A DNA stretch of 40,000 nucleotides from an uncultured Kistimonas sp. (GCA_964291485.2 OZ220224.1:2966188-3006187); one strand, 5' to 3'. Counted from the first letter of the stretch, positions 11,990-25,830 are shown. Numbers and translations are program-made. The notes: generated from the sequence alone by a model not told the origin.

Positions 11990-12196
11990 TTTTCCACTAG
12001 CTCAAAGTCCCTTTGATGTTTTCATTTTAGCAGGAAGGCGCTTATACCCTTTTGATCGCACGTGTTGAGTATTACCTGAAATCTGGACAACAAATGCTTG
12101 TCTTCCAATACCTGCCTCAAGGGTATGCATCAGCTATTGCCCTCCCTGCAGCGAGTGTCAGCCTCCAAAAGACGATTGGCACATCTTAAACAGTCA

Positions 12197-12829: not shown

Positions 12830-12954
12830 ATCCTGTTGTCCCTGTTTGACGTCGACAGATACTGCCCGAAGGCTTCACGAAGAGATTTGCAGTGGGAATA
12901 CGTTGGCAAGGGATTCATCACATCAGGTGCTGAATCTCCCTGCGCAACCAATCA

Positions 12955-13362
12955 CTAAGGGGTATTGTCGATAATTTCAACCGAATGCGTGATCTTCATC
13001 GCAGGCTGGAGCATTAAACAAACATGGCAGTATTTGCTGATTGCATTCCGGACGGCGACGTCAAGATCAGCCTCAGTCACTCCCTTGCCCCTGGCCGTAA
13101 AGTGCAAATTGACTGACTCATAAAGCCTCGGTTCACTCTCGGTGAGTGTATAGGTCACATGGTTGTTCAGGCTATCCAGACCAGCTGCTTTATCCTGAAA
13201 ATACAGAACCACGTCGGTAGCACTACAAGAGCCGAGGGCAGACAACAGCAACTCCGTCGGACACGGCGCCACATTGCTCTCTGCATCGACATTGACGATA
13301 AAACCACCGTTCGTTGTTACCTTGAACTGGCAATCACCTTGCCACTCTACATTCAGGCTCAT
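12955..13362 (-). CDS. OsmC/Ohr family protein
   Basis: 135 aa. PTELLLSALGSCSATDV and a later ISKYCHV (the two conserved Cys contexts of the OsmC family). Confidence 0.75.
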   Translation of the reverse strand: MSLNVEWQGDCQFKVTTNGGFIVNVDAESNVAPCPTELLLSALGSCSATDVVLYFQDKAAGLDSLNNHVTYTLTESEPRLYESVNLHFTARGKGVTEADLDVAVRNAISKYCHVCLMLQPAMKITHSVEIIDNTP

Positions 13363-13456
13363 GTCTTTCCTTTAAAGTACCAAATAATGACTCAATGCAA
13401 GCTTAATGGCTGTGAGCGCTTTCATTCACAGTACCTTGTGAGTGAAACGCCTGTAT

Positions 13457-13927
13457 TTAGATGATCTGAATCTCTAACCGTGGTCCAATTTGCCTGAAAC
13501 CTTCGCGGGTGTAGAAGTTTAATGTTCTCGACCATCGGGGTTGTTCGGGTGCACCCACTTCGAGAATGGGCCAGTGCTGTTCTTTGGCAAATTGTTTAGC
13601 GAAGTCTATGAGACTATTTCCAATACCACACGAACGGAAGTCTGGACGGATATAGATCTCCATGATCTCACCGAACATACCGCCAGCATAAATTGCACGG
13701 CACTCACTCAACGTGATAACACCGACTGCATCCAGATTGTCATCGTTTGCCAGGAATGCCCAAAACCCGCTATTTCTCTGGATCAGCTTTTGGGCAGAAT
13801 CAATAAATGTGCGCTTATCCAGTGTATTTAACGTACTTTCCCAGAGTTCTTTTTCCATTTCATAAATCATCTCACCAACGATGTGGGAGTCTGAACTAGC
13901 TGCCTGTGTGATCGTATAAATTGACAT
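13457..13927 (-). CDS. GNAT family N-acetyltransferase
   Basis: 156 aa. IYIRPDFRSCGIGNSLI (acetyl-CoA-binding R/Q-x-x-G-x-G/A motif) and a C-terminal FYTREGF. Confidence 0.8.
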   Translation of the reverse strand: MSIYTITQAASSDSHIVGEMIYEMEKELWESTLNTLDKRTFIDSAQKLIQRNSGFWAFLANDDNLDAVGVITLSECRAIYAGGMFGEIMEIYIRPDFRSCGIGNSLIDFAKQFAKEQHWPILEVGAPEQPRWSRTLNFYTREGFRQIGPRLEIQII

Positions 13928-14048
13928 CAGAATAACTATACAAAGAGTGATATTTAACCAGATACTGAAGATATGGTAGTGCGAAACGACCAGACATCAT
14001 GACGCCTGCAAACAGTAACTGCTGGCAGTCGCCCTACTCTCCAGCCAC

Positions 14049-14627
14049 CTACTTGATTTTAAAGAAAGGACAACATTCCATCTCAGGATCAAAAGATATG
14101 AGGAAATAGATACTGGATAAGCCATCGGAATGTGGCGGCTCATAATCCTGCAGATAGTCGGATACGGTATTTTTATCTAACAGCGGTTCATCGGTAAAAA
14201 TGACCAGGGCATAGCCCGCCGGATAGGGCCCGCCTTTCAACGCCGAAAAGCGCGCATCCTTCCTTGTAATAAGCTCTGAAACGGCTGAGCAAAATCGCTC
14301 CTTACTCCATGCCGCCCATTCGTAGACACACCCCGCTTTGAATGCCCGAACCGCTTCCGCACAGACCAGCTCCGTCACTTCAATCGCGATTCGCTCGCCC
14401 GCTAACATCGCTTCACAATCGGGCGGATCATTGCCCCGGCCTCTTGACCGGATGTCAGAAAAACCCGTTTCACCGGATTGCTCAAACGATTCATTCAGAC
14501 GCGCAACAACGCCCCACTCTTCAAGATCTCTGTCAGGTGCCCAACCAAAGAAATCAGCATAACCCCGAGCCTTTTCTCTGGCTTCTTTCATTGAGGCAGC
14601 AATCGCTCTTTCTTGTTGTTTATCCAT
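14049..14627 (-). CDS. hypothetical protein
   Basis: A 192-aa ORF with coding-like composition. DPPDCEA...IAIEVTEL is vaguely PD-(D/E)xK-like but lacks the Lys, so I make no functional call. Confidence 0.5.
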   Translation of the reverse strand: MDKQQERAIAASMKEAREKARGYADFFGWAPDRDLEEWGVVARLNESFEQSGETGFSDIRSRGRGNDPPDCEAMLAGERIAIEVTELVCAEAVRAFKAGCVYEWAAWSKERFCSAVSELITRKDARFSALKGGPYPAGYALVIFTDEPLLDKNTVSDYLQDYEPPHSDGLSSIYFLISFDPEMECCPFFKIK

Positions 14628-14748
14628 AGGATGTTTGAATAGTAATGGTGATTAACAAGAGCTTAAAAAAATTTATTTTTTCAACTTCGTAAAATAGCTT
14701 TAATCGAAACAACTAATCCTTGGTTTTGGGTACCGAAGGCTTTCCAGA

Positions 14749-14782
14749 CAGCTAACAAAAAACACCTGAAAGTTGTTAGCTG
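14749..14782. other. 10-bp perfect inverted repeat with CTAAC/GTTAG cores (degenerate attC-like palindrome?)
   Basis: CAGCTAACAA (14749..14758) / TTGTTAGCTG (14773..14782) with a 14-nt loop, between two minus-strand ORFs. It is too short (34 bp) for a canonical attC. Confidence 0.3.
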
Positions 14783-14843
14783 CTAAATTTATAATCCTTA
14801 AATCTCAGTGTTGCGGTTCAAAGTTGAAACTAGGCGCTGGTGA

Positions 14844-15716
14844 CTAAAGATGCCCTTGTTGCAGGCTGAAAAAAACACTGTTCTTCTTGTCTAATAATCC
14901 AAGGTCTAGACCTTCTATATGCCAATCTAGGTTGAACTTTTTCGGATGAGGTTTGTTGCCAGCCTCATATAAGGTATTAACAAAAGCTCTATCGTTTAAT
15001 TTTGCATCGTGATCGATGATAATTTGTGAATAATGATCAGCCATTCTGATTAAATACATTGGGTGGCCTGACGTCATTATCGGATTATTCATATATACTG
15101 TTCCAGGCTCCATACCAAGCGTCGTATATTTTTCGTGAATTTTCCACATTCTCTCACGCTCTTCATTCATCTGACCATTTTCATCAGCAAACTCGAATAC
15201 TGAATGATCAAATATACCAATCGCATGTAGTGTGTCTCTACTTACGAATGCAAATAAAACTTCATCAGTCCTTTTTGATAACCCTGATTTCTCAATTTCC
15301 ATGTTTAAGTGGAAATGATGAAACCCTTTAGTATTGAGGATTTGATCTTTATCCTCCCAAGCATCAACTTCACCATCTTTTATCCGTTGTACTAGCGTAT
15401 ATCCATTTTTGTGAGCCCGTCGTGATAGAAATGGATGTAGATCTTCCCCATTTCTTACTTTATTGAGAAGATCATTGATGCTTTCTTTGAGATTTTTGTA
15501 TCTTCTGTCAGCAGTAAGTTCAGGAGCGCGTTGAACTGTACGGATTCTGGTAGGTACTTGTCTTGTCTGCCAATGAAGATAGTGAATCACCACATCACTT
15601 ATGCTCTGAGACTCAAGCTCTTCAAGTGTTTTTTTATCATTTGGAAAGAAAGGTAACTCTTTAATCAGTTTATCTTTCAACCGTTTTATCGAATTTGACT
15701 CTTCCATATACTCCAT
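14844..15716 (-). CDS. hypothetical protein (cassette-borne, no recognisable domain)
   Basis: A 290-aa ORF in a markedly AT-rich segment. It begins about 45 nt after the reconstructed attC-C R' core. Confidence 0.55.
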   Translation of the reverse strand: MEYMEESNSIKRLKDKLIKELPFFPNDKKTLEELESQSISDVVIHYLHWQTRQVPTRIRTVQRAPELTADRRYKNLKESINDLLNKVRNGEDLHPFLSRRAHKNGYTLVQRIKDGEVDAWEDKDQILNTKGFHHFHLNMEIEKSGLSKRTDEVLFAFVSRDTLHAIGIFDHSVFEFADENGQMNEERERMWKIHEKYTTLGMEPGTVYMNNPIMTSGHPMYLIRMADHYSQIIIDHDAKLNDRAFVNTLYEAGNKPHPKKFNLDWHIEGLDLGLLDKKNSVFFSLQQGHL

Positions 15717-15760
15717 ACTTAATAACTAGAGTTGATTGAGTGATTTGATGTAAGCGCATA

Positions 15761-17598
15761 ATCGGGATAGGGCGAAGCCTCACAGCTCCGCTCCTCCCAC
15801 ACCACCGGCCATACGGATCACGTAACACGGCGGTTCAAATTACTTTGTGTTCATCTTGCCGCCAGTTCTGGCAGCCCAAGGTTCTTAAAGTACTTGTTTG
15901 GCAAAGCGTATCGTAGAGCTGGACTACCACTTAAACGCCACGGCCCGTGCGCAGACTTGGCTGTATTCCATGCCAACCATCTGTCTACACCTAATCGCCT
16001 TAACATTCGGTAGCCCTTACGATCCCATTGTTTCCAAACATAACACCGCAATCGTCGTCGAACCCATTTGTCCAGACACCGCAGAGGACTCAGTATTTCA
16101 GCGATGTCGAAATACGCTTTCCAGCCAAGCAGGGATTTTCTCAGCTCTGCGATAATCTGGGTGATTGAATGGCCTCTCGTTCGACGGCTCAGCTCTTTGA
16201 CGGTCGCCTTCAATTTGACCAGTGCTTTATCGCTGACCTTCACTTTCAGTTCCCGTCGACTGAACGTAAACCCAAGGAAGTTACATTCCCAAGGTCGACC
16301 TACTCCACTCTTTTGGGTATTCACTGTGAGTCGCAGCGATTCTCCAATAAAATGTTGCAGGCTTTTCATCACGCGATCACCCGCGGCCTGACTTTTAACG
16401 AATACCACAAAGTCATCAGCATAACGAGCGAACCTGAGGCTCCGCTTTTCCAGTTCCCAATCCAGATTATTCAGCACGATGTTTGAAAGGACAGGCGACA
16501 GTGGGCCGCCCTGTGGTACCCCTTTCACACTGGCTTGTTTTATTCCATTGATGCAGACACCGGCTTTCAGATAACGATTAATTAATCGCAACAGCGTGGC
16601 ATCTTCCTGATGTGTCTTGAGTTGCATCATCAACAGGTCATGGTTGACGTTGTCAAAGAACGCTTCAAGATCACAATCTACCACCCAGTCATATCCACTC
16701 TTGAAAGCAGCCTGAGCATACCCTATCGCCTGATGAGCATTACGGTGTGGACGAAAACCATAACTGCTGTCATGGAATTGATCGTCCCACTCCTCCTGCA
16801 TAATCTGGGCAATAGCCTGCTGTATCAGGCGGTCAAGAACGGTAGGAATTCCCAACTTACGTTTGCGTCCATCCGGTTTAGGGATTTCGACCCGCAAGAC
16901 GGGTTTGGGTGAGTAAGTCCCTTCTATAAGTTGCTTCCGTAACATCGGCCAGTATTGCTTGAGGAAGCCTGGAAGGTCGTCAACGGTCATGCCGTCCACG
17001 CCCGGAGCTCCTTTATTGCGTTGAACCTGTTTCAGTGCACGTACCAGATTGTTCCTATCCAGTACCCGCGCCATCAAAGATGAACAAAAGGTGGATTTTG
17101 GCTCAATCAGGTCTCCCGATTCCGGTTCATCCTCCGGAGTTTCCAGAGACAACGACTGTTGTTTAACAGATGCCATCCGAAACCACTTCCCCGATGATTA
17201 CTCTCCGAGATTTGTTCAGGCCTTCAGTGACGAGAGGTCACCTACTATGCCTTCTGCTGACTTCTGCACTGCGATCACACCGGATTGCTCCCATGTCAGT
17301 TAATCCCTCAACACAATGCAGACCTCCCGAGGTAAGGCACTTAACTTTCATCGCGTAGACGCCCAATTTATAAAACGTATCCCGATTGCAGATGGAGGGC
17401 TTAATGGTCACGTGCCCACTGGCCCCGAATACGTCACACCTCATATTGGATTCTTGTTCATCGCCCCGCGATTTTGCGTTGGGCTTCCTTCAGACCCTGC
17501 CTCGCGACAACGCCCTTGCCCTTTCGCTAACCTTCGGCTCTGCGAATACCTGGTAAGAGGACTTTCACCTCTCTAGTTAAGTGCCATGCTCGGCACAC
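15761..17598 (-). mobile_element. group II intron, bacterial class C-like, inserted in an attC site
   Basis: On the minus strand the 5' end reads GTGTGCCGAGCATGGC (GUGYG). An RT/maturase ORF lies in domain IV. A domain V-like ACCGCC...GGCCGGT helix sits at about 15800..15830, and the 3' end reads ...CUAUCCCGAU. The element is about 1.84 kb with no En domain. Boundaries are inferred (plus or minus a few nt) from GUGYG and from restoring AAGC-GT|TA. Confidence 0.75.
15851..17176 (-). CDS. group II intron reverse transcriptase/maturase
   Basis: RNKGAPGVDG, GVPQGGPLSP, YADDFVVF (RT motif 5), and a C-terminal maturase (X) region. There is no HNH endonuclease tail. Confidence 0.92.
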   Translation of the reverse strand: MASVKQQSLSLETPEDEPESGDLIEPKSTFCSSLMARVLDRNNLVRALKQVQRNKGAPGVDGMTVDDLPGFLKQYWPMLRKQLIEGTYSPKPVLRVEIPKPDGRKRKLGIPTVLDRLIQQAIAQIMQEEWDDQFHDSSYGFRPHRNAHQAIGYAQAAFKSGYDWVVDCDLEAFFDNVNHDLLMMQLKTHQEDATLLRLINRYLKAGVCINGIKQASVKGVPQGGPLSPVLSNIVLNNLDWELEKRSLRFARYADDFVVFVKSQAAGDRVMKSLQHFIGESLRLTVNTQKSGVGRPWECNFLGFTFSRRELKVKVSDKALVKLKATVKELSRRTRGHSITQIIAELRKSLLGWKAYFDIAEILSPLRCLDKWVRRRLRCYVWKQWDRKGYRMLRRLGVDRWLAWNTAKSAHGPWRLSGSPALRYALPNKYFKNLGLPELAAR

Positions 17599-17682
17599 AC
17601 GCTTGGTTCAGCCGCGCCGCCGACGGCGGCGTCGGGTGGAGGGGCGAAGCCCCGGAACGAACTGGAACCATTTGTTAGAAGC
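17599..17682 (-). other. integron attC-like site C (its R' core is split by the intron; the remaining 5 nt + flank lie at 15754..15760)
   Basis: Minus strand: GCTTCTAAC-AAA-TGGTTCCAG-(50 nt containing GGGGCTTCGCCCC and CGCCGCCGTCGGCGGCG hairpins)-CTGAACCA-AGC-GT|intron|TATGCGC. The L'' arm carries one extra C relative to L' (an extrahelical base). Confidence 0.65.
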
Positions 17683-18890
17683 TATTGGTCGATAGCTGGT
17701 ATGAACTCTTCTTTTTCTAATATTCTTACTAGGCTTCGCATGAGAAAGTTATTAGTAAAATTAACATAATAAGTTCTTGAGTTTTCTTGTATTGGCTTAA
17801 TGAATCCAGACTCTTTCATTTTTGCTAATTGATGCGTTCGTTGCCTAGATGTCAACTCCGGCAATGGTTCATCAAGATCTATGGCTTTAAATCGCTGTTT
17901 TTTAATGCCTACTCTCAATATTTTAACTTCTGTTTCATTTAGGTATCCACGTTCAACACCAAGTTCAATAGTTGGAATGAGAATATTTTTATAAAGAAAA
18001 CCAAAGTCAAGAAGCTTATTAACTTTAGTAACTTCATCCAAAATACCTGTTAATACATACTCACACCATTCTAGTAATGCACTATCATCCGCAGAATCAG
18101 CTTTAGTTAAGTTCTGATAATATTGATCTCGATCATTACAAAACACAGCTGTTGGATTAAGAATTTTTCCATCTTTGACATTAAATCCATATTTAATCAA
18201 CATAGCGTACGTTAATAACCTAACAACTCTGCCATTTCCATTACCAAAAGGATGTATCCATGTAAATCGGTGATGAGCTATCGCAGTTTTTAACAGATCG
18301 TATTTTCCAGCTTCATCTTTATTTATAAAAGCTAATAATTCATCCATATACCCCTGAACTGAATTATGTTCAGGTGGCAAATGAGTTGATTGGGAAATCT
18401 CCACGCTCCATGTTCTATATGCGCCAGGAGTCCTATCACCTTCTTCGTTAAGTCCATCTACAGCTAAATGGTGCAACTCTCTTATAAAATGATGAGTTAT
18501 TTCAGAGCCTTCAGAAATGCTTTGCTCTATGTAGTCCATAGCACTTTCAACATTAGCAATTTCAGAATATCGCTCTGTGGAGCGTTCATTATGTTCGATT
18601 TTTTGCTCTATATATTCAGATATAGTTGTCCGGTTACCCTCTATACGGGCTGAACCGACACTTTCCATAATATGGAAAATTTGCTTAAGCTGGAAGAAAA
18701 TCCAAGGTGCAGTGGTTCCACCAAGCCTCTGCTTTCTAAGGTGGTTCAACTCCATCAATGTATCAGTTAGATTAGAGTCAAAACTTGGACTTACTAACTT
18801 CAAGTCAAAGTGGTTAAATGAGGCGCTCATATCTTCATTTTGCCTACGCAACATATTGATATTAAAGGACTTATTCTCCGGCTTGCTCAT
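17682..18890 (-). CDS. Fic family protein (class II: N-terminal inhibitory helix, Fic core, C-terminal winged-helix-like domain)
   Basis: Fic motif HPFGNGNGRVVR (HxFx[D/E]GNGRxxR with Asn at the D/E position). Inhibitory motif SARIEG (S/TxxxE[G/N]) upstream. 402 aa and very AT-rich. Confidence 0.85.
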   Translation of the reverse strand: MSKPENKSFNINMLRRQNEDMSASFNHFDLKLVSPSFDSNLTDTLMELNHLRKQRLGGTTAPWIFFQLKQIFHIMESVGSARIEGNRTTISEYIEQKIEHNERSTERYSEIANVESAMDYIEQSISEGSEITHHFIRELHHLAVDGLNEEGDRTPGAYRTWSVEISQSTHLPPEHNSVQGYMDELLAFINKDEAGKYDLLKTAIAHHRFTWIHPFGNGNGRVVRLLTYAMLIKYGFNVKDGKILNPTAVFCNDRDQYYQNLTKADSADDSALLEWCEYVLTGILDEVTKVNKLLDFGFLYKNILIPTIELGVERGYLNETEVKILRVGIKKQRFKAIDLDEPLPELTSRQRTHQLAKMKESGFIKPIQENSRTYYVNFTNNFLMRSLVRILEKEEFIPAIDQ

Positions 18891-18896
18891 TCTACT

Positions 18897-18981
18897 AACT
18901 ACAAACCAAAGAAATTGCTAACTACATTCTACATAATTCAACAACTACATTATAGGGGATAAATACTCATTGGGAACTACA
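18897..18981 (-). promoter_or_regulatory. four direct copies of AACTACA (minus strand TGTAGTT) in the Fic cassette leader
   Basis: Copies at 18897, 18920, 18943 and 18975, giving spacings of 23, 23 and 32 bp. They lie between the attC R' core and the Fic ATG. The extended consensus is CTAACTACAT. Confidence 0.4.
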
Positions 18982-18999
18982 CAGCTGAGAATTTGGGTA

Positions 19000-19035
19000 G
19001 CTTCTAACGCCTGCATCAGCCGACGCCGTAGGCGG
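19000..19035 (-). other. integron attC-like site B, R'-proximal half
   Basis: Plus strand: GCTTCTAAC-GCC-TGCATCAGCCGAC-GCCGTAGGCGG. It pairs with 20322..20345 once the IS is removed. Confidence 0.7.
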
Positions 19036-19071
19036 TGATCTTCCCCCGATAAAATGGACACCCTTCTACAG

Positions 19072-19956
19072 CTAAGCTGCCGCCTCGTATTCTACCGGAG
19101 ATTGATAATTAAGGCTTGAGTGCAGTCGAGCACGGTTATAAAAATGCTGTATATATCCAGCTAATGAATCACGTAGGTGGTGAACACTGCGGAATGTGGT
19201 TCCAGTAATCAACTCACCTTTCAATGAATGAAAAAATGATTCCATCTCCGCGTTGTCAGTGCATCGGTAGGCGCGATTCATACTGGGTATGAACCCATAG
19301 CGTTTATGTACGTTATGAAGCTCTGTGGCTCGGAATTCGATGCCTTGGTCTGAGTGAAAAACAAGCCCTTTCGGAGGGCGTCGATTTCTGATGGCCATCA
19401 ACAGGGCAGCTTTGGTTAAAGCCGCTGTCCGGTTGTTTTTTAGCGACCATCCAACGACTTTCCGTGAATACAGATCCAGCACGACAGCCAGGAACATCCA
19501 TCGTCCTTGTAGTTTTATATAGGTCACATCCGACGTCCAGTGCTGGTTAATCGCCGTTGGCTTGGGGAGATCTTTGCGAATGTTAGGCACAGGGTCACAA
19601 GCTCGTTGTGGCAGAGGCTTTCTGCGATAAATGCGAGCCACACGGCCTTTCAGTTGAGCTTCTCGCATCAAGCGCTCTACGCGTTTTCTGCCAACACTTA
19701 TCCCCTGGTTACGAAGCACCTTGAAGATGCGCGGGCTTCCATAGCGTCCCTTGCTTTTATCAAAGACAGACTGGATGCGCTGTAAAAGCAACTGGTCATC
19801 AAGTTTACGCTGACAAGGCTTTCGGTTTCGCCAAGCATGAAAGCCACTGCAGGTAACATTCAGACGTTTACAGAGAAAGCGAATCCCGAAACGCTGATGG
19901 TGGAACCCTATGAACGCGAATCTTTCCTGCGTTGTTCCGCGAGAAACGTTTCCCAC
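19072..19956 (-). CDS. IS3-family transposase OrfB (DDE integrase core), made as OrfAB by -1 frameshift
   Basis: HSDQGIEF, TDNAEMESFF. Overlaps orfA. The slippery A6G (CTAAAAAAGTGG on the minus strand) lies at 19956..19962. Confidence 0.9.
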   Translation of the reverse strand: MGNVSRGTTQERFAFIGFHHQRFGIRFLCKRLNVTCSGFHAWRNRKPCQRKLDDQLLLQRIQSVFDKSKGRYGSPRIFKVLRNQGISVGRKRVERLMREAQLKGRVARIYRRKPLPQRACDPVPNIRKDLPKPTAINQHWTSDVTYIKLQGRWMFLAVVLDLYSRKVVGWSLKNNRTAALTKAALLMAIRNRRPPKGLVFHSDQGIEFRATELHNVHKRYGFIPSMNRAYRCTDNAEMESFFHSLKGELITGTTFRSVHHLRDSLAGYIQHFYNRARLHSSLNYQSPVEYEAAA

Positions 19957-20264
19957 TTTTTTAGAAAATCGACCTCTTTTTTGAGAGCGGCATTCTCGGC
20001 CTCGAGTTTCTTGATCCGCTCGCTGTCAGTCAGCTCTTTTTTTCTGGGGATAGTCTCAAGATTTCTGGAGACTTTGCGTTCATCGGCCACAAGACTGCCC
20101 TCAAAATATTCTTTGCGCCAACGAGACAACATAAACGGATGGATGTCTAGGTAGGCAGCGACATCTTTGATCATCACACCAGGTTTGAAGGTCATTCGAA
20201 CAGCACTGACTTTGTACTCATTGGTGTAGCGACGCGTTGGTTTATCAGGTCTGTAACTTGTCAT
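19908..20264 (-). CDS. IS3-family transposase OrfA (HTH + leucine zipper)
   Basis: 118 aa. YTNEYKVSAV, RWRKE, and a C-terminal coiled coil (KKLEAENAALKKEVDFLKK). Confidence 0.9.
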   Translation of the reverse strand: MTSYRPDKPTRRYTNEYKVSAVRMTFKPGVMIKDVAAYLDIHPFMLSRWRKEYFEGSLVADERKVSRNLETIPRKKELTDSERIKKLEAENAALKKEVDFLKKWETFLAEQRRKDSRS

Positions 20265-20318
20265 TTAAGCACCTCATTGGATTAGGAATGAGGTGTCCAC
20301 AAAAGCGGGGGAAGTTCA

Positions 20319-20345
20319 CGGTCGGCTGGATGCACTTGTTAGCAG
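20319..20345 (-). other. integron attC-like site B, R''-proximal half (first 3 nt are the IS target duplication)
   Basis: Plus strand: (CGG)TCGGCTGGATGCA-CTT-GTTAGCAG. On the minus strand, CTGCTAAC contains the TAA stop of the upstream ORF. Confidence 0.7.
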
Positions 20346-20888
20346 TCTTTCGATGATATACGCAAAAACTGTTTGTTCATTTTTTCAAATGAAGAGCAGT
20401 CTAGCGAAAACGAGTACCCGCCTGTTCGGTGATCTCTTGGATAACGCAAATGTTGATCCATGAAAGCAGGTTTAAATTGTTTTATGTGTTGCTGGTGTAA
20501 TTCCAACTCTCCTTTATTCAATTCACATGGATGATACTCTTCGAATTTAAATGAATGGTCAATTTTATAGTCGTCGGATGGGTAAAGTTTTAGATAGCTC
20601 TCTTCCAATTCTTTTAGTTTGTGAGTATACGGGGCTGAGCCTGTTTTTTTCTTTATCATGTACTTGTAAAATAGCTCAACTGCATGAAACATTTGATAAG
20701 CAATAGCGTTCTCATATTCGTGAACATGCTTAAAATCTGTATCAGCAATGACTGAAACTCTTCCTATTTCCAAGTAGGCGATTGCCATATTCAAAAATTC
20801 ATCACACTCTTGATTCAATATGTACTCCTTGACTGCTAACGCTTTGATAAGCGGCGCACTCACGCACAAAGGTTGGTGCGACTCTGAG
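20339..20888 (-). pseudogene. HEPN-like protein gene, 5' end severed by an IS3-family insertion (first 5 codons at 22136..22149)
   Basis: The ORF-track N-terminus MSIITSSDH is encoded by IS sequence. Removing 20889..22135 restores ATG(22149)-MGFPSSESHQPLC.... HEPN-like signature: QMFHAVELFYKYMI...YTHKLKELEESY plus LRYPRDH (R-x4-H). Confidence 0.6.
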
Positions 20889-20951
20889 TGATCTGAGGAA
20901 GTAATTATGGACACCTTCTTAAGGGAGTAAAATCACTCTCTGAGGTGACCA

Positions 20952-21236
20952 ATGACTACCAAGAAAAAACGTAAATATCATTCACCGGAATTCAAAGCCG
21001 AAGCCCTGAGGTTGGCCGAGAAAACCAGTATCCCGTCAGCAGCCAGGGAGTTGGGATTGCAAGAGTCCCAGCTCTACGCATGGCGATCCGCAGCGCTCAG
21101 AAAAAAGACGGTCAGTGAGCGAGAGTCTGCGTTAGCGACTGAGGTTGCCAGACTCAAGCGCCAACTGGCGGTGCAGGCTGAGGAGCTTGAAATTCTAAAA
21201 AAGGCGGCCACCTACTTCGCAAAAAACCAAAAATAG
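20952..21236 (+). CDS. IS3-family transposase OrfA
   Basis: 94 aa. YSPEFKAEALRL, LYAWR, LEILKKAATYFAK. The A-rich slippery run GCAAAAAACC lies near the 3' end. Confidence 0.9.
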   Translation: MTTKKKRKYHSPEFKAEALRLAEKTSIPSAARELGLQESQLYAWRSAALRKKTVSERESALATEVARLKRQLAVQAEELEILKKAATYFAKNQK

Positions 21237-21250
21237 AGCGCTTCCGCTTT

Positions 21251-22102
21251 ATGCTCAGGAACAGGAGCCGGTTTTCTCTGGTCAGGATGGCTTCTGTTCT
21301 ACGAGTCTCGCGAAGTGGGTACAACCGCTGGGAAAGAACCCGCCATAAATCCAGTCATCGCGCTGTCAAACAGCAGCTTCGTGACGGGTTGATTCTGGAG
21401 GCATTTCGGAGGAGTAAGTCTCGTTCAGGTTCTCGTCGTATCCAGAAAGACCTGGAGGATGCTGGTCAGCCTTGCTGTATCAAAACCGTTCAGGACAGCA
21501 TGAAACGACAGAGTCTTGTTCCCAGGGCCGCTCGTAGATTCAGGGTCACGACTGACAGCAAGCACACGTTGCCTGTTGCGCCTAACCTGCTCAAGCGTGA
21601 CTTTGTAGCCACAGCGCCCAACCAGAAATGGGCCGGTGATATCACCTATCTGCAAACCAGCGAAGGTTGGCTGTATCTGGCCGTTGTCATTGATCTGTTC
21701 TCACGTCGAGTCATAGGCTGGTCCATGGGAACCACAATGAAAGCTGACCTGGTGTGTGATGCATTGAACATGGCGCTCTGGCGCCGACGGTTTCCTGCTG
21801 GTGTGCTATTTCATAGCGATAGAGGCAGTCAGTACTGCTCTCAAGTATTCAGAGACATGATCGAGAAAAACGGCTGCCATCAGAGTATGAGCCGTAAAGG
21901 CGACTGTTGGGATAACGCTTGCGTAGAGAGTTTTTTCCACTCATTGAAAGTTGAGGCTATACATCATGAGCCAATGATGAATCGGGCGCAGATGCGGCAG
22001 GCGGTGTTTGAATACATTGAAGTCGATTACAATCGAACCCGCCGACACAGTTCATTGGGGTATATGACTCCCATGAATTTCGAGTTGGCAAAAGCAGCTT
22101 AG
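21251..22102 (+). CDS. IS3-family transposase OrfB (DDE)
   Basis: WAGDITYL, HSDRGSQY, WDNACVESFF, YNRTRRHSSLGY. Confidence 0.9.
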   Translation: MLRNRSRFSLVRMASVLRVSRSGYNRWERTRHKSSHRAVKQQLRDGLILEAFRRSKSRSGSRRIQKDLEDAGQPCCIKTVQDSMKRQSLVPRAARRFRVTTDSKHTLPVAPNLLKRDFVATAPNQKWAGDITYLQTSEGWLYLAVVIDLFSRRVIGWSMGTTMKADLVCDALNMALWRRRFPAGVLFHSDRGSQYCSQVFRDMIEKNGCHQSMSRKGDCWDNACVESFFHSLKVEAIHHEPMMNRAQMRQAVFEYIEVDYNRTRRHSSLGYMTPMNFELAKAA

Positions 22103-22172
22103 GCCGATGTCCATTTTTACTGAATCAGATCAGAGCTTGGGAAGCCCATTCGATTTTATGAGTGTGCCGTTT

Positions 22173-22215
22173 CATCAACTTGTTGGACGAGCCCTCGCAC
22201 GGTCTCGCCGTATGG
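22173..22215 (-). other. possible attC-like site A, R'-proximal half
   Basis: Plus strand: CATCAAC-TTG-TTGGACGAGCCC-TCGCACGGTCTCGCCGTATGG. The TTGGACGAGCCC arm is an imperfect complement of GGGCGCGTTCAACA at 23614..23627. The core is poor (GTTGATG on the minus strand). Confidence 0.35.
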
Positions 22216-22221
22216 ATTTAA

Positions 22222-22258
22222 CAGTAAGCTACGATTGCCGTACAAACGTAGCTTACTG
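22222..22258. repeat. perfect 12-bp inverted repeat hairpin
   Basis: CAGTAAGCTACG (22222..22233) / CGTAGCTTACTG (22247..22258) with a 13-nt loop, about 150 bp downstream of the IS91-family tnpA stop. Confidence 0.85.
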
Positions 22259-22404
22259 TCTGATATTGGGATATCCGGCAGTGATCCGGCTTTGCTTTGA
22301 TCATTTTACTGTTTCAAACGTTGTTCATGAATCGCAAAAGCGGTAGTTTTCCAGCACCAGTCCGACAGGTATCCCTGATAAGTTCTCAGCATCTGGTTGC
22401 AGGC

Positions 22405-23541
22405 TCACGATCCATTGTGGCGGGTCGGATCCCGGCCTCGCCGAAATCGCTCTTTGATGACCAGCGGTTTTCGACATGTCGGACAACAGGCCTGCGCTGC
22501 CCTTCCTACGGTTACCAGATAGGCTTGCCAGCTCAACGAGGTGTCTGATTCAACGACACACTGTTGTTTATGCGCCTCCCGGGCTCGGTTCAGAGCTGCA
22601 CGTTTGCCACTGGTATAGAGTCCATAGCTACGGACGGTTCGCTTACCTTTGTCGGGAACATGAATCAGCAATTGCCTGATAAAACCTGTTTTTGAAAACG
22701 ACTGGATTTCAGTTTTACCCGACTGATGACTCTGATACTTCAGTTGAATGCTATCTTCGTTGAGGCTGATCTGTTGATTATTGATCGGGCCACCTTTTAC
22801 ATAGCGAGCCAGGTAGTTAATGACGCCGTTGCCATGGTTATACGGTTTCATGACTTCAACGTGCCAGTCTGCTCGTCCAAGCTGGTTAATCATGTGACTG
22901 AACCCCGTCTGGCCGAGTGATTCCGGCACTCTAAGGGATTCTGACCTCATCGCAGCGCAGAATTTTCCCCGGAAAAGTCTCATCACGACTTTGAAGGGTA
23001 GAAAGCAACCTTTAACCGGAGCTATCCATTGTCCCTTGCGAGTGAGTCCACCATTCGTTACCAGGCAGTGTATATGAGGATGCAGACTGAGGTTTCTGCC
23101 CCATGTGTGCAGATTCAATAAGAATCCACTGTCCGCTCCCAGGTATTTTTTATCATTCAATAATGTTTTCATCGTCTCGCTGACAGCATTAAACAGAATG
23201 TCAGTCATCAGACGAGTATTCATCAACCAGAGTTCGTTGAACTGATGAGGAATAGTGAAAACCAGATGGCGATGTGAGGTATTAATCAGTAATTGGCTCT
23301 TTGCGCTTAACCAACGTTCAACCTGAATCTGATTACATTGCGGACAGTGCCGGTGTTTACAGGAGTTGTACCAGATTTTGCTGATATGTCCGTCCGGGCA
23401 ACTTTGTATGTGCCCGCCCATGGCTGCCGTACGGCAATTTATAAATGCGTTAGCGGCCCGGTAATGATGCAGTGGCAGTCTTTTGTTTTTGGTATATGCT
23501 TCAAAGGATTTTTTGAAAACCTTTTGTATTGTGGTTTTCAT
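22405..23541 (-). CDS. IS91-family transposase (zinc-binding N-terminus + Y2 HUH domain)
   Basis: CPDGH...CKHRHCPQC zinc-ribbon motif. LVFTIP. HPHIHCLVTNGGL (HUH-type motif). YLARYVKGGPI. 378 aa. Confidence 0.88.
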   Translation of the reverse strand: MKTTIQKVFKKSFEAYTKNKRLPLHHYRAANAFINCRTAAMGGHIQSCPDGHISKIWYNSCKHRHCPQCNQIQVERWLSAKSQLLINTSHRHLVFTIPHQFNELWLMNTRLMTDILFNAVSETMKTLLNDKKYLGADSGFLLNLHTWGRNLSLHPHIHCLVTNGGLTRKGQWIAPVKGCFLPFKVVMRLFRGKFCAAMRSESLRVPESLGQTGFSHMINQLGRADWHVEVMKPYNHGNGVINYLARYVKGGPINNQQISLNEDSIQLKYQSHQSGKTEIQSFSKTGFIRQLLIHVPDKGKRTVRSYGLYTSGKRAALNRAREAHKQQCVVESDTSLSWQAYLVTVGRAAQACCPTCRKPLVIKERFRRGRDPTRHNGS

Positions 23542-23599
23542 GGGATTCCAATACTAAGTTAAGAATCTCAAAAGTAGACTAAAATCCTGCCTGCTCTTT

Positions 23600-23637
23600 C
23601 CCTCGGCGTAGCCGGGCGCGTTCAACAGCTATTAGAA
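23600..23637 (-). other. possible attC-like site A, R''-proximal half
   Basis: Minus strand: TTCTAAT-AGC-TGTTGAACGCGCCC-GGCTACGCCGAGGG. The core differs from the TTCTAAC seen at sites B and C by one base. Confidence 0.4.
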
Positions 23638-23701
23638 CTCATCCGAGTAATATTGGATATTGAACTCAAATGAGAAATATTATTTAAAAACCTTTGTTAT
23701 A

Positions 23702-23715
23702 AACTCACGTGAGTT
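23702..23715. repeat. 14-bp perfect palindrome AACTCACGTGAGTT
   Basis: Self-complementary by inspection. It sits in an ORF-free AT-rich stretch between attC-like site A and a GTTAGCG core at 23731..23737. Confidence 0.8.
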
Positions 23716-24140
23716 ATATTATCTTTCATCGCTAACCACATAACCCCCTGTTTATAAACGAGAAAACATCCATATTCCAAATCACTCCCAATATTTCTCA
23801 AACACTCTGATGCTGTTGGCAAACGCCTGTTTGAATGATCCGCTGTCGCACTGGGCAAGGCGCTGAGCAACCGATGATGGCCAGCTGCGCGACACAGCCT
23901 GGAACACCCTGAGCGACTAAACACCTCAACTGTCAACGGCAACCAAGCCGGGCAATATCGTGAAATACCCTGCCAACACCCCATTTGCAGACAGTGACTT
24001 ATCCTGAATGACAGACACGCTACCGCCCGAAGGTGAGACCTGACCGGTTATAGATCAGGCGGAGCATGGGCCTCACTAGCTCGTTACTGCACGGCTGTAC
24101 AAGAAAATTGGGTTATCTAATCACACTTTGCAGGCTTCAG

Positions 24141-24247
24141 CCATGGTGCCGGTCAACGCCGAATGGCAGTGCGATCAGTTGTCTTTTGTCGTTTAGTACC
24201 CACAACGTGGTTTTGGGAGGAAATCAACAGAAAAGGATTCTTTCAGC
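24141..24247. repeat. 107-bp direct repeat, copy 1
   Basis: Identical by inspection to 24370..24476 (CCATGGTGCCGGTCAACGCCGAATGG...GGATTCTTTCAGC). Confidence 0.9.
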
Positions 24248-24307
24248 TTAACGCCCGAAAGCGATTGTCGATGATTCAGACCAGTGAAAGGACCCAAAAC
24301 GTGTTTT

Positions 24308-24358
24308 GTCGGAGCGAAAGGATTCGAACCTCCGACCCCCACAACCCCATTGTGGTGC
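24308..24358 (-). pseudogene. 51-bp fragment of tRNA-Pro (3' half, discriminator to anticodon arm); att-type scar
   Basis: GTCGGAGCGAAAGGATTCGAACCTCCGACCCCCACAACCCCATTGTGGTGC matches 24569..24619 of the intact gene with one mismatch (A versus G in the T-arm). It lacks the 5' half. Confidence 0.85.
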
Positions 24359-24369
24359 AAGAAAACGAG

Positions 24370-24476
24370 CCATGGTGCCGGTCAACGCCGAATGGCAGTG
24401 CGATCAGTTGTCTTTTGTCGTTTAGTACCCACAACGTGGTTTTGGGAGGAAATCAACAGAAAAGGATTCTTTCAGC
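24370..24476. repeat. 107-bp direct repeat, copy 2
   Basis: Identical to 24141..24247. Followed, like copy 1, by TAACGCCCGAAAGCGAT ... TCAGACCAGTGAAAGGAC and then tRNA sequence. Confidence 0.9.
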
Positions 24477-24566
24477 ATTCCGACAGTAACGCCCGAAAGC
24501 GATGGATGCGATGCAAGAAAACGATGATAAGCAGAGAGAAAAATCAGACCAGTGAAAGGACAAAAC

Positions 24567-24643
24567 TGGTCGGAGCGAGAGGATTCGAACCTCCGACCCC
24601 CACAACCCCATTGTGGTGCGCTACCAGGCTGCGCTACGCTCCG
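24567..24643 (-). tRNA. tRNA-Pro (anticodon GGG), second identical copy
   Basis: 77/77 identical to 3840..3916, with the same cloverleaf. Confidence 0.95.
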
Positions 24644-24742
24644 ACACTACCGCGAGGCTTGCCCTCACGACGGGTGCGAATCATACCCAAACCACCGTCC
24701 CGAGGCAACCGCGATTCGCACATTCCCTGCCGGTTTTAGCGG

Positions 24743-25528
24743 CTATTCTTCCTCCAGCCGATCGCATTGTGTGGTCCGTGTTTCCGTGATGGCTTCCAGC
24801 GCCCCTTGCCAGAGATCCATGCGCGCCGACATCGCCTGGCGCGCCATCACCAGCGCCCGGTCCATGCCGTCTTCCGTCCCCTGGGTCAGCAGCCGCAGGA
24901 TCGCTGCTGCCGCCGGGCCGTGCTCGTCGCCGTCCAGCTCGATATGGCGCTCCAGGTACCACATCATGCCCGGAATGGTGGCCTGCTCAATGCCCCACTG
25001 CGCCAGCAGCGCGGAGAACATCTCCGGAATGGCATCCTCCCGTCCGAACAGGAAATAACTGGCCACATCCGCACTGCAGCCTTCAATGGCCACGGTCAGG
25101 GTATCCGTCACGAACGCGCGCACATGCGCCGGTATGCCGTGGCCATGAATGGCGGCCTGCCAGGGCACGCCGTTTTGCAGTGCCTCGAGGAAGGCCTCGA
25201 AGACGGACGTGTCCGCACCGATCTCACGCATGGCATCCAGGTACATGGCCAGGTGGCTGGTCGGGTGGCCGTGACGGTCTTTGTCGGTTTCTTCGCAGAG
25301 GATGATCTCGTTGATAAACCGCGCCGCATTGGCATCCACCGGTGTGCGCCAGGGCAGTGTCATACCGGTCAGGTCATGCTGCAGGCGCTTGGCCAGCGAC
25401 ATGAAATCCCACACCGCAAACACATGGGTTTCCATGAATGTCGCCAGTTTCGCCCGGGTATCAATGCCTTCGTACAGCGGGTGAGAAAACAGCCGTTGCC
25501 GGTAGTGTGCCAGTTCCTTTTCAAACAT
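24743..25528 (-). CDS. DUF3050 family protein (heme-oxygenase-like fold)
   Basis: HPLYEGI...LATFMETHVFAVWDFMSLAKRLQ matches my recollection of the DUF3050 signature. The gene is very GC-rich and has a long spurious antisense ORF. Confidence 0.7.
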   Translation of the reverse strand: MFEKELAHYRQRLFSHPLYEGIDTRAKLATFMETHVFAVWDFMSLAKRLQHDLTGMTLPWRTPVDANAARFINEIILCEETDKDRHGHPTSHLAMYLDAMREIGADTSVFEAFLEALQNGVPWQAAIHGHGIPAHVRAFVTDTLTVAIEGCSADVASYFLFGREDAIPEMFSALLAQWGIEQATIPGMMWYLERHIELDGDEHGPAAAAILRLLTQGTEDGMDRALVMARQAMSARMDLWQGALEAITETRTTQCDRLEEE

Positions 25529-25830
25529 GTTGCGTCCGTCCTTGTTGGCCCCAGTGGTTGTTCACTGCGGTTACTATCGACGGTGTCCCTGTCTCTCATG
25601 AGCGGCAGTTGCAGCCAATTTTTTTACATCTTTTTTATCAAGGTGTTAGCGCGAATCATGCTGTCGGGTCACGTCCTTGTTTTGACGCTGGCTGATAAGA
25701 AGCATGGCAACGTGCGTCAGACTGCCGGGAAAGAAAACGCGGGCAAAAAAATAGCGACAGACGCTGGAACGCCTATCGCTATTGTCTTACGCCAACCCAA
25801 ACCGTGCTAAGGCTGGTGTCATTCTATCCG

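Follow-up and report, generated by a model that had tools for sequence, protein, structure and literature searches.

A gene block in a Kistimonas-like chromosome as the probable relic of an integron cassette array broken up by IS elements and a group II intron

Introduction

The locus considered here lies on the chromosome of a marine Kistimonas-like bacterium (Endozoicomonadaceae), adjoining a tRNA-Pro gene, and combines similarly directed genes with palindromes that are interrupted by mobile elements. Are these palindromes the attC sites of an integron and, if so, where is the integrase, and can the cassettes still move? In an intact integron the bottom strand of attC folds, is bound by the integrase IntI and is cut between A and C opposite G|TT, and it is this cut that leads to a cassette being excised or inserted. 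A cluster of attC sites lacking an integron integrase (CALIN) is understood here according to the IntegronFinder definition, under whose neighbourhood rule no integron integrase lies within 4 kb of the attC cluster.

The answer given here is that positions 23626..14831 of the window (the whole 40-kb stretch of DNA analysed), read on the minus strand and comprising four cassettes, are very probably a fragment of an integron cassette array without an integrase nearby, a CALIN that is now a decayed relic.

The attC sites

Three sites, named A', B and C, can be rebuilt in the window:

22133..22188, minus strand, 5' part of attC A': R'' GTCCAAC, spacer AAG, L'' arm and part of the loop
20833..20885, minus strand, 3' part of attC A': L' arm, spacer AGC and R' GTTAGCAG
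20319..20345, minus strand, 5' part of attC B: CTGCTAAC-AAG-TGCATCCAGCCGACCG, with non-window HMM positions 5-29 matched at 20345..20321
19000..19032, minus strand, 3' part of attC B: CCTACGGCGTCGGCTGATGCA-GGC-GTTAGAAGC, matching non-window HMM positions 28-67
17599..17682 with last bases 15760..15754, minus strand, attC C to the GT of R', from model R2 and identity to the Endozoicomonas numazuensis locus L086

Sites B and C are restored to the base when IS3-family element #1 (duplication CCG) and the group II intron are removed, the IS3 elements being cleanly removable because of their 3-bp target duplications, CCG and CTC. The coordinates that the original prediction had given, 20345..20322 joined to 19035..19000 for B and 17682..17599 joined to 15760..15754 for C, are exact to the base, and its deletion limits also hold for the intron (15761..17598), for IS3 #1 with one CCG copy (19036..20321) and for IS3 #2 with one CTC copy (20889..22135). 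The crossover point falls between 20840 and 20839 in A' and between 19008 and 19007 in B. With lengths of 109, 60 and 91 nt for A', B and C, respectively, the sites fall within the expected range of about 57-141 nt, and their R''/R' cores (GTCCAAC/GTTAGCA in A', TGCTAAC/GTTAGAA in B and TTCTAAC/GT|TATGC in C) agree with RYYYAAC/GTTRRRY, where TAAC/GTTA is invariant across the attC family alignment. All three show, when folded, an R box and an L box, the latter with an extrahelical base, together with unpaired spacers and a variable loop (z = -5.3 for B and -2.5 for C), with a single bulge in the '' arm of each site, which is a C in A' and a G in B and C, where the extra C earlier noticed on the R'' arm is present and corresponds to the extrahelical G of the bottom strand. 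The layout of the sites is canonical, running from R'' (..YTAAC) through a 3-nt spacer, an L box whose R'' arm has the extra base, and then a variable loop to L', a second 3-nt spacer and R' (GTT..).

The identity of the sites was examined with models R1 and R2 and one HMM, which were built here from a small, related set of sites and which substitute for the curated attC covariance model of IntegronFinder. These models detect sites C and B together with attC sites of class 1 integrons, the family model finding those of qacL (38.6 bits), aadA1 (27.7), qacG2 (24.9) and blaIMP-4 (22.1). The matches to the rebuilt sites come from models that never saw the window: the sequence HMM made from non-window attC only scores rebuilt B at 42.7 bits (E 9e-13) and the rebuilt C at 51.2 bits, while C reaches 49.8 bits (E 1.6e-10) with covariance model R2, also built without the window. 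B is already visible in the raw window, in the form of two abutting half-matches, to non-window HMM positions 5-29 and 28-67. Site C is found with all insertions in place, because the intron sits at its last bases, and the expectation that scanners would miss every site went too far. Two of the attC sites in E. numazuensis L086 match site C at 96-99% identity, and the likeness to the aadA1 59-be that had been claimed for it holds against the real aadA1 attC in pR148.

Could the likeness to attC be superficial, and the palindromes be REP-like repeats or transcription terminators? They are GC-rich hairpins placed at gene ends, terminators are also targeted by group IIC introns (PMC3001079), and a short palindrome downstream resembles a plain hairpin:

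14747..14783, no strand assigned, short perfect palindrome GCAGCTAACAA..TTGTTAGCTGTC, with R''/R'-like arms without an L box

This palindrome scores only 11-16 bits with either attC model on both strands, folds with z = -4.0, and could be either an attC with an internal deletion or no more than a hairpin. Against a repeat or terminator stands the covariation within a layout of R'', spacer, L box and bulge: for the attC consensus structure, compensatory changes are seen at 11 of 22 pairs in A1, and the 16 non-window sites have them at 14 of 22 pairs, with 92% of cells paired, above all 500 shuffles. The cross-detection of class 1 attC sites and the stopping of cassette homology at G|TT in three independent arrays also speak against it. 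Finally, neither the rest of the 40-kb window nor 20 kb searched at L006, the syntenic locus of Kistimonas, gave further attC-family matches, and a REP family, the alternative raised at the outset, is already contradicted. We regard an origin of the sites as repeats or terminators as scarcely credible, and B and C are genuine attC sites at the very places first proposed for them.

The upstream end and the absence of an integrase

The upstream part of the array contains the following features:

20840..23625, minus strand, cassette 1, short and lacking its own ORF, with the IS91-family element inside it and attC A' at its end
23620..23626, minus strand, orphan R' core GTTGAAC, the start of cassette 1, read from the sequence
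23627..23722, minus strand, remnant of an IS200/IS605-like element end, ending ..TAATAGCT directly against the orphan R' core

A third site had been placed here as split by the IS91-family element. This was misplaced, the real attC being 22188..22133 plus 20885..20833, split by IS3 #2 only. The R'' half first proposed for it (..GAGTTCTAATAGCTGTT, 23634..23624) is rejected, as it is the terminus of the IS200/IS605-like element. Site A', which lies before the HEPN-like cassette, reads GTCCAAC-AAG-TTGATGAAACGGCACACTCA...TGAGTGCGCCGCTTATCAA-AGC-GTTAGCAG, and its rebuilt bottom strand of 109 nt forms an R box, spacers, an L box in which one base is bulged, and a stem of 14 bp (z = -3.2, with none of 200 shuffles equally stable). 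The 3' half gives a weak match to positions 41-64 of the non-window attC HMM (E about 0.1), and the cassette start TTAGCAGTCAAGGAG of the junction recurs in the cassette array L087. Mainly from the fold and the logic of the cassette boundaries, A' is predicted to be a real attC upstream of the HEPN-like cassette.

The limits of cassette 1 would be set by A' and by the orphan R', the rest of whose attC is missing; GTTGAAC appears to complement the R'' of A', GTCCAAC, at six of seven positions. The IS200/IS605-like remnant forms the 5' limit of the array and is 92% identical over 38 nt, and more weakly similar over about 100 nt, to a sequence in E. numazuensis L086 that abuts the start of a Y1_Tnp gene. 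Two copies of this end occur in L086, one (copy 9949) followed directly by the G|TT that starts a cassette and the other (copy 6824) by GTTA and then masked bases. Upstream of the array the remnant gives way to about 290 nt of unique sequence and then to the conserved tRNA-Pro region, beyond which lie syntenic core genes, and an intI with attI and Pc before the first cassette, as in a complete integron, is absent from this end.

The absence of intI from the window, asserted in the original prediction, is borne out. Pfam searches of the 33 largest ORFs of the window gave no tyrosine recombinase (PF00589-type), and tblastn with IntI1 over the 40 kb gave only noise (best E 4.9); "integrase-less" refers to this window alone. 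No integrase was seen within 4 kb of the sites in these searches, and A', B and C lie within 22188..15754, with less than 4 kb between neighbours even before any insertion is removed, which agrees with the definition of a CALIN as two or more attC sites separated by at most 4 kb.

The cassettes and their relatives

Downstream of A' three cassettes carry one gene each:

20339..20818, minus strand, HEPN-like gene of cassette 2, 159 aa, TTG start after AAGGAG, stop TAA inside R'' of attC B
17682..18890, minus strand, Fic-domain protein gene of cassette 3 (Pfam Fic 1e-16; PADLOC SoFic 2e-49)
14831..15760, minus strand, cassette 4 with a 290-aa gene at 14844..15716 (PADLOC PD-T4-7 4e-10)

The ORFs are unidirectional, and R'' contains or adjoins their stop codons, which read TGC-TAA-C in the HEPN-like gene and TAG-CTTCTAAC in Fic, both as first noted. 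The 159-aa call agrees with that of the source genome, and while the Pfam HEPN match of the protein (E 0.044) is below threshold, its homologues are labelled HEPN domain-containing by two sources. The true start of the Fic gene is probably about 20 codons in, because its homologues have 382 aa. In cassette 4 the attC is cut inside R'' at about 14831, which forms the 3' limit of the array. That the array is cut short on either side had escaped the original prediction.

If these are cassettes, do they recur one by one in other arrays? The HEPN-like gene has an 85% identical copy in L087; window positions 17663..19008, exactly the Fic cassette, are 84.7% identical to 9800..11168 of L001, which carries at least 12 uninterrupted attC sites; and cassette 4 shows 77.7% identity to L086 9947..10877, from its first bases to within R''. 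The neighbours differ in each case, and the homology between arrays stops exactly at G|TT, which is indirect evidence that an integron integrase may have recombined the cassettes at this point. Variation is therefore cassette-wise, and it is seen across genera. The proposed rule that the first bases of a cassette complement its own R'' also holds, TTAGCAG pairing with CTGCTAAC and TTAGAAGC with GCTTCTAAC, and the R'' that it predicts for cassette 4 is present in the L086 copy, which runs on into an intact attC (GCGCATAAC.., 72.8 bits). The cassette interpretation is supported on all three counts that had been named in advance as able to overturn it, namely model matches, a genome-wide REP family and cassette-wise variability, none of which went against it. 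From the similarities of their products, the cassette genes probably have single-gene anti-phage or toxin functions (SoFic-like, PD-T4-7-like and HEPN).

The inserted elements

The mobile elements within the array are as follows:

15761..17598, minus strand, group IIC intron of 1838 nt with protein gene 15851..17176, inserted at GT|T of the R' of attC C
19036..20318, minus strand, IS3-family element #1 with orfA 19908..20264 and orfB 19072..19956 (Pfam HTH_Tnp_1, rve, HTH_21)
20889..22132, plus strand, IS3-family element #2 with TG..CA ends (Pfam rve, HTH_21 on ORF 21251..22102)
22405..23541, minus strand, IS91-family transposase gene, 378 aa (Pfam Y2_Tnp 1e-48, Zn_Tnp_IS91 5e-26)

The intron has the features of group IIC: ribozyme domains found by the D1-D4 models of Rfam (group-II-D1D4-3 at 126.7 bits, and D1D4-1), a protein with reverse transcriptase and maturase domains (RVT_1 and GIIM) and no endonuclease domain, a length of about 1.8 kb and a position directly after a stem-loop, the attC C hairpin. 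It starts with GTGTG, ends with GAT and is co-oriented with the cassettes. Over its full length it is 77.7% identical in nucleotides to the intron of pPp47, and its ends (GTGTGCCG..CCCGAT) and junction are conserved in pR148, pPp47, L009 and L087, the junction being identical to that of introns inside class 1 arrays. The introns of pR148 (after aadA1) and pPp47 (after aac(6')-Ib4) share its orientation, 5' and 3' ends and insertion within R' (AAGCGT|TAGAT, AAACGT|TAGATGC), with encoded proteins 62-77% identical; their hosts are mobile class 1 integrons from isolates of clinical or animal origin, whereas the present intron occupies a CALIN on the chromosome of a member of a marine symbiont lineage. 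On sequence grounds the intron is assigned to the lineage that inserts at GT|T in the attC top strand, as in those plasmids. Group IIC-attC introns of the S.ma.I2 type are similar in being small, in having a protein without an endonuclease domain and in lying just after an attC hairpin at ..GT/T, but they occupy the bottom strand at TTGT/T near R'', opposite to the cassettes (PMC3001079, PMC7923331), unlike the top-strand, co-oriented intron at R' (GCGT/T) described here, which does not show the insertion pattern of that type. An "unusual" top-strand group IIC intron in an Enterobacter cloacae integron (Rodriguez-Martinez et al. 2012), as cited in PMC7923331, has the same orientation.

Both IS3 copies have an rve transposase, TG..CA ends and a 3-bp duplication, in keeping with the 3-4 bp typical of the family, with an upstream orfA in #1. 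Element #1 (ends TGAAC..GATCA, duplication CCG) splits attC B near the hairpin tip, and #2 (duplication CTC at 22135..22133 and 20888..20886) splits A'. Elements of the IS91 family have a Y2 rolling-circle transposase and ori/ter ends beside a GTTC/CTTG target, and make no duplication. The copy here, with approximate limits of roughly 22190-23600 (about 22216..23599 in the original prediction), lies inside a cassette, and its DNA has no match in the plasmids or comparison loci. Insertion of IS elements in palindromes or attC is known from the IS1111-attC group and from IS1397 and ISKpn1 (IS3 family), which enter REP loops, and the IS200/605 element ISHahl1 adjoins a CALIN (PMC7923331). The copies here likewise lie inside or directly against attC hairpins, the IS200/605-like end, a remnant only, abutting the G|TT of R'; in contrast to those elements, attC specificity of the two IS3 copies is unproven. 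Selection against insertions in genes could suffice to explain why three of the four insertions lie in attC.

Origin and present state

How did the array arrive, and does it still function? One account holds that the block is a passenger of another mobile element and never belonged to a local integron, having come with a tRNA-Pro island or by IS91 rolling-circle transposition. A partial 3' tRNA copy and a direct repeat of 122 nt accompany the block, which lies immediately downstream of tRNA-Pro; locus L006 of a Kistimonas relative, which has no array at the syntenic position, ceases to match the window at 24011, a short way downstream of the tRNA; GC content is about 37% in the cassettes and about 50-55% in the flanking DNA; both array ends are truncated; and an IS91-family element lies at its upstream end, ISCR relatives being known to move adjacent integron DNA. 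Set against these points are the lack of a tyrosine integrase or other island machinery in the window and the undefined ends of the IS91 element. We consider such a history possible though doubtful, and it is compatible with the CALIN explanation because it accounts for the arrival of the array and not for its identity.

A further question is whether the array is a working part of an integron system, with an IntI acting in trans from a gene at another place in the 4.8-Mb chromosome or on a plasmid, in which case the label CALIN would reflect only distance from intI. CALINs are thought to be mobilisable in trans. The near-identity of attC C with the E. numazuensis sites suggests recent membership of a homogeneous chromosomal integron, and relatives of the IS copies and of the intron occur in other arrays, so that such arrays persist despite insertions. 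Yet no intI lies in the 40 kb and every site is damaged. Recombination would be blocked at A' and B, each split by 1.2-1.3 kb of IS3-family element with its 3-bp duplication, and at C, where the intron parts GT from T of R' inside the cleavage site; it would also be blocked at the array ends, where the fourth attC is cut in R'' and the upstream site is reduced to an R' beside the IS200/IS605-like terminus. Activity in trans is considered unlikely.

The array is best compared with CALINs and the decayed sedentary chromosomal integron arrays of marine Gammaproteobacteria, with which it shares at least two attC sites within 4 kb without intI nearby, unidirectional cassettes with mostly one gene each, toxin- or defence-type content, and canonical attC sites with high similarity both among themselves and to the sites of a related genus. 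It differs in that all of its attC sites are interrupted or truncated by a mobile element, in that both array ends are cut and in that one site alone is detectable before the insertions are removed. The evidence shows the sites, the family to which they belong, where the cassettes are bounded, the insertions and the lack of intI over 40 kb. Loss of recombination competence, and the order of events, are what we infer from this structure: because every attC is broken the array is probably frozen, and it is most likely a frozen relic, the cassette genes of which may still be expressed.

Architecture of the array

The minus-strand segment 23626..14831 is very probably a decayed, integrase-less integron cassette array (CALIN). 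Its HEPN-like, Fic and 290-aa genes are all low in GC and share one direction, and four mobile elements are placed between and around them.

Genes, mobile elements and one split attC site of the array
23541..22405, minus: transposase of an IS91-family element (Y2_Tnp, Zn_Tnp_IS91)
22188..22133 + 20885..20833, minus: attC A', 109 nt, split only by IS3 copy 2
20889..22132, plus: IS3-family element, copy 2, TG..CA ends, 3-bp target duplication CTC
20818..20339, minus: HEPN-like gene (159-aa protein)
20318..19036, minus: IS3-family element, copy 1, orfA + orfB, TG..CA ends, 3-bp target duplication CCG
18890..17682, minus: Fic gene
17598..15761, minus: group II intron (Rfam D1-D4 models; protein with RVT_1 and GIIM, without endonuclease domain)
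15716..14844, minus: 290-aa gene

The target duplications CCG and CTC allow both IS3 copies to be removed unambiguously.

Reconstruction and modelling of the attC sites

Two attC sites, B of the HEPN-like cassette and C of the Fic cassette, had been positioned in the original prediction, and the sequence agrees exactly with both placements. Deletion of IS3 copy 1 and one CCG rebuilds B as a 60-nt site, CTGCTAAC-AAG-TGCATCCAGCCGAC-CGCCTACGGC-GTCGGCTGATGCA-GGC-GTTAGAAGC, and deletion of the intron rebuilds C as 91 nt. The one extra C claimed for the 5' arm is present in both, and in both the stop codon does lie in or against R''. As single-stranded DNA the bottom strand of B forms an R box, an L box in which a single G is bulged, and a terminal stem-loop, with the spacers left unpaired; the bottom-strand fold z-scores are -5.3 for B and -2.5 for C. 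The aadA1 59-base element, which had been cited as resembling C, was given correctly (..GCCGACGCCGCTTCGCGGCGCGGCTTAACTCAAGCGT|.. in plasmid pR148) and aligns with the 3' half of C. In a blastn search against plasmids rebuilt C returned noise only (E about 1), the query being too short and too rich in GC.

A covariance model, R1, was made from an alignment of rebuilt B and C with five sites of a second array (L001; ENA ERZ28496113 ctg3997). The consensus is that of a textbook attC, with invariant TAAC/GTTA, 3-nt spacers and one unpaired column in the 5' arm, and compensatory changes occur in 11 of the 22 pairs. In L001, R1 finds at least 12 sites on a single strand, 7 of them outside the training set, and it also scores attC sites of class 1 integrons. 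To guard against circularity, a second covariance model, R2, and an HMM were trained on 16 sites, none from the window; in this set 92% of cells are paired and 14/22 pairs covary, above all 500 shuffles.

Scores of attC sites
qacL attC, class 1 integron: R1, 38.6 bits
aadA1 attC, class 1 integron: R1, 27.7 bits
qacG2 attC, class 1 integron: R1, 24.9 bits
blaIMP-4 attC, class 1 integron: R1, 22.1 bits
C, untouched window: R2, 49.8 bits, E 1.6e-10
C, rebuilt: HMM, 51.2 bits
B, rebuilt: HMM, 42.7 bits, E 9e-13, full length
B, untouched window: HMM, two abutting half-hits (model 5-29 at 20345..20321, model 28-67 at 19036..18999)

Both rebuilt sites are thus matched by models that owe nothing to the window, as an attC-model search had been expected to show. 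Standard scanners had been predicted to miss every site; this is true of the other two, whereas C is detectable in the untouched window, so that one of the three attC sites can be found with the insertions in place. Might the palindromes instead be REP or terminator hairpins? A REP family was expected to recur genome-wide, and neither R1 nor R2 finds a further site in the 40-kb window, nor R1 any in 20 kb of the syntenic locus of a Kistimonas MAG (L006). This explanation is barely conceivable.

Cassette boundaries and copies in other arrays

The bases that follow G|TT at the start of a cassette were predicted to complement the R'' of the same cassette, and they do so in each case, including that of the 290-aa cassette, whose predicted R'', GCGCATAAC, is missing from the window.

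First bases and own R'' of the gene cassettes
HEPN-like cassette: TTAGCAG; CTGCTAAC
Fic cassette: TTAGAAGC; GCTTCTAAC
290-aa cassette: TTATGCGC; GCGCATAAC (predicted)

The copy of the 290-aa cassette in Endozoicomonas numazuensis (L086; 84% identical) has exactly the R'' GCGCATAAC, followed by an intact attC of 72.8 bits. Window and L086 are similar from the opening base of the cassette (15760/15761) as far as 14831; since the match breaks off within R'', the attC that ends the window array is truncated. L001 holds the same Fic cassette (Fic protein 95% identical), with first bases G|TTAGAAGCTAC.. and R'' TAGCTTCTAAC both as in the window, uninterrupted same-family sites on its flanks and neighbours unlike those of the window; the nucleotide similarity (window 17663..19008) spans exactly one cassette. 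The HEPN-like cassette is also found in an unrelated array of GCA_900299555.1 (L087; OODV01000380.1; 85% protein identity), where its start, TTAGCAGTCAAGGAG, and its R'', GACTGCTAACAAG, are those of the window copy. The recurrence in L001, L086 and L087 demonstrates that each of the three gene cassettes is a modular unit with its boundaries at G|TT.

The L001 array is large (3435..20418, at least 12 attC on one strand) and full of IS21, IS91 and IS1595 elements, as well as of group II introns that are oriented against the cassettes. The window array is thus not alone in being densely colonised by mobile elements. The Fic gene family also occurs outside cassettes, as a 76% identical gene stands alone between the core genes CCP_MauG and GST in L002 / L003 (10001..11149), with no attC on either side.

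Limits of the array

At the upstream end the original prediction had a weak site A that appeared split by the IS91 element. No model match is found there, and the putative R'' half (..ACTCGGATGAGTTCTAATAGCTGTT, 23650..23624) matches at 92% identity a sequence of which L086 has two copies, one directly adjoining an IS200-type Y1 transposase gene. This half is accordingly the terminus of an IS200/IS605-like element, of which about 100 nt are left in the window. An orphan R' core, GTTGAAC (23626..23620), lies directly against it. The two L086 element ends (6352..6824 and 9477..9949) are 99.8% identical: the former lies beside the intact Y1 gene and runs through GTTA into masked bases, and the latter, a truncated copy that can be read through, stops immediately before the G|TT that opens a cassette. 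This arrangement suggests that the R' core of attC sites is the insertion point of an IS200/605 lineage. An attI was also considered for this end, given that the L086 cassette begins right after its GTT, and was rejected because L086 carries the sequence twice, once beside the Y1 gene.

The true upstream attC is A', before the HEPN-like cassette, which reads GTCCAAC-AAG-TTGATGAAACGGCACACTCA ... TGAGTGCGCCGCTTATCAA-AGC-GTTAGCAG. Its bottom strand folds canonically with one bulged base (z = -3.2), and its match to the sequence model is weak (HMM, E about 0.1, R' half only). Since A' is split by IS3 copy 2 only, the IS91 element would lie inside a short, ORF-less first cassette and not inside an attC; a similarity search for the ends of this element gave no match in plasmids or the fetched loci.

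Downstream, a perfect 10-bp palindrome without an L box, GCAGCTAACAA(14 nt)TTGTTAGCTGTC (14747..14783), lies 50 nt past the truncated array end, its arms equal to the R''/R' cores of L001 attC sites. It was rejected as the last attC, as its scores are too low and the L086 comparison puts the truncated true site further upstream; it may be an internally deleted attC. No further attC was found between 14.7 and 4 kb, where genes are also unidirectional, and with their host-like GC the minus-strand genes from 14.6 to 5 kb are consequently not part of the array. Among them are a chromosomal class A beta-lactamase gene (8906..9793, minus; Pfam Beta-lactamase2, 1e-41; host-like GC) and two adjacent genes for WD40-repeat proteins (5077..6495 and 6661..8010, minus), beyond which lies a eukaryotic-type carbonic anhydrase (4103..4945, plus). 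Eukaryote-like proteins of these kinds are typical of Endozoicomonadaceae symbionts.

Genomic setting and loss of mobility

The closest genome is that of the uncultured Kistimonas MAG (Endozoicomonadaceae; DUF3050 89% identical). Its locus L006 is syntenic with window 24012..35748, including pheST, is unlike the window from the point equivalent to 24011, and holds a single tRNA-Pro within the 20 kb fetched.

tRNA-Pro copies and repeats around the array
3840..3916 and 24567..24643, minus: two identical tRNA-Pro(GGG) genes
24301..24384: partial 3' tRNA copy, just downstream of the upper tRNA and upstream of the array
24139..24260 / 24368..24489: 122-nt direct repeat, 95% identical, just upstream of the array

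The tRNA-Pro pair, 20.7 kb apart, brackets the array together with about 10 kb of ordinary-looking genes, and the tRNA copies and repeat look like the scar of a tRNA-integrated element or a local tandem duplication. Arrival of the array on a tRNA-associated island, or carried along by the IS91 element, is possible though rather unlikely, and would be compatible with its being a decayed array. Beside these copies, a non-coding stretch downstream of tRNA-Pro (24012..24200, minus; L006 11097..11283; ..GGCCTGCAAAGTGTGATTAGATAAC..GTAACGAGCTAGTGAGGCCCATGCTCCGCC..CTTCGGGCGGTAGCGT) is about 85% conserved and ends exactly at the divergence point of window and L006; it has no Rfam match at gathering threshold and may encode a small RNA or serve as an attachment site.

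Cassettes of this kind are made for movement by IntI via folded bottom-strand attC sites. Here the mechanism would be disabled at each site, through two IS3 insertions, one intron in the cleavage site, one truncation and one orphan R' beside the IS200/605-like end. No intI is visible in the window, as first noted: Pfam finds no tyrosine recombinase among the 33 largest ORFs, and the best tblastn match to IntI1 has an E of 4.9. Recombination of the array by an integrase acting in trans is distinctly improbable.

The three genes fit the recent view of cassettes as anti-phage gene stores, with functions taken from homology. The Fic protein matches the PADLOC SoFic model (2e-49) and the 290-aa protein partially matches PADLOC PD-T4-7 (4e-10), while the 159-aa protein falls below threshold against Pfam HEPN (E 0.044), its homologues being named HEPN domain proteins by two sources. 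Integron cassettes have been reported to encode anti-phage systems (bioRxiv 10.1101/2024.07.02.601719).

A recurrent top-strand intron

The nearest plasmid-borne relatives of the intron protein are 77% (pPp47) and 62% identical (pR148 and similar IncC plasmids), and the introns of pPp47 and pR148 are part of class 1 cassette arrays and share the direction of the cassettes.

Arrays and intron junctions
pPp47: intI1-blaIMP-4-qacG2-aac(6')-Ib4-[intron]-qacG2; AAACGT|GTGTGCCG...CCCGAT|TAGATGC
pR148: intI1-qacL-blaOXA-10-aadA1-[intron]-qacEdelta1; AAGCGT|GTGTGTCG...CCCGAT|TAGAT
Window: CCAAGCGT|GTGTGCCG...CCCGAT|TATGCGC

The same intron type occupies the same attC point in a Sansalvadorimonas MAG locus (L009) and in the HEPN cassette attC of L087, so that five independent attC sites carry a top-strand GT|T intron, in a range that extends from marine chromosomes to IMP-4 / OXA-10 plasmids. 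The L087 copy (2815..3100; ..TTGAGGCGT|GTGTGCCGAGCATGGCAC..) may itself be interrupted, as its similarity seems to break off roughly 50 nt short of an IS1-family transposase gene (3105..3845). No clear pattern of EBS1/IBS1 covariation emerged from the five introns. Lying between GT and T, the intron keeps apart the bases on either side of the IntI cleavage point.

Published group IIC-attC introns are inserted at TTGT/T in the bottom strand and run counter to the cassettes (PMC3001079, PMC7923331). The window intron clearly resembles this classical lineage in its mode, with a hairpin, a short IBS1 and then T, but differs in the orientation that defines it. As far as the citing article describes it, one 'unusual' top-strand group IIC intron of Enterobacter cloacae (PMC7923331, citing Rodriguez-Martinez et al. 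2012) behaves like that of the window. Tentatively, and at somewhat below even confidence, these observations can be joined in a reading in which a distinct IIC lineage, homing to the top strand of attC sites exactly at GT|T of R', would be native to marine Endozoicomonadaceae-like cassette arrays (window, L009, L087) and would be the environmental source of the clinical class 1 integron introns (pPp47, pR148). The intron would be co-transcribed with the cassettes, and the split IntI cleavage site would fuse neighbouring cassettes. In IS-rich symbionts attC hairpins would serve as landing pads for several mutually unrelated elements that target single strands (the group IIC intron, IS200/605 and perhaps IS3), and such insertions would drive the decay of integrons into CALINs.

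Significance

CALINs, IS elements and group II introns in attC sites, and top-strand group IIC introns are all already known, and the understanding of what integrons are is unchanged by this locus. What it provides is a compact and well-resolved example of integron decay, with a different insertion or truncation for each recombination site. In IS-rich genomes cassette arrays can escape attC scanners until nested mobile elements are removed, and since such insertions hide sites, symbiont genomes may hold more integrons and CALINs than are counted. Finally, the top-strand GT|T intron recurs in both marine chromosomal arrays and clinical class 1 integrons; it thus connects the two and is a concrete lead on the origin of the introns in the latter.
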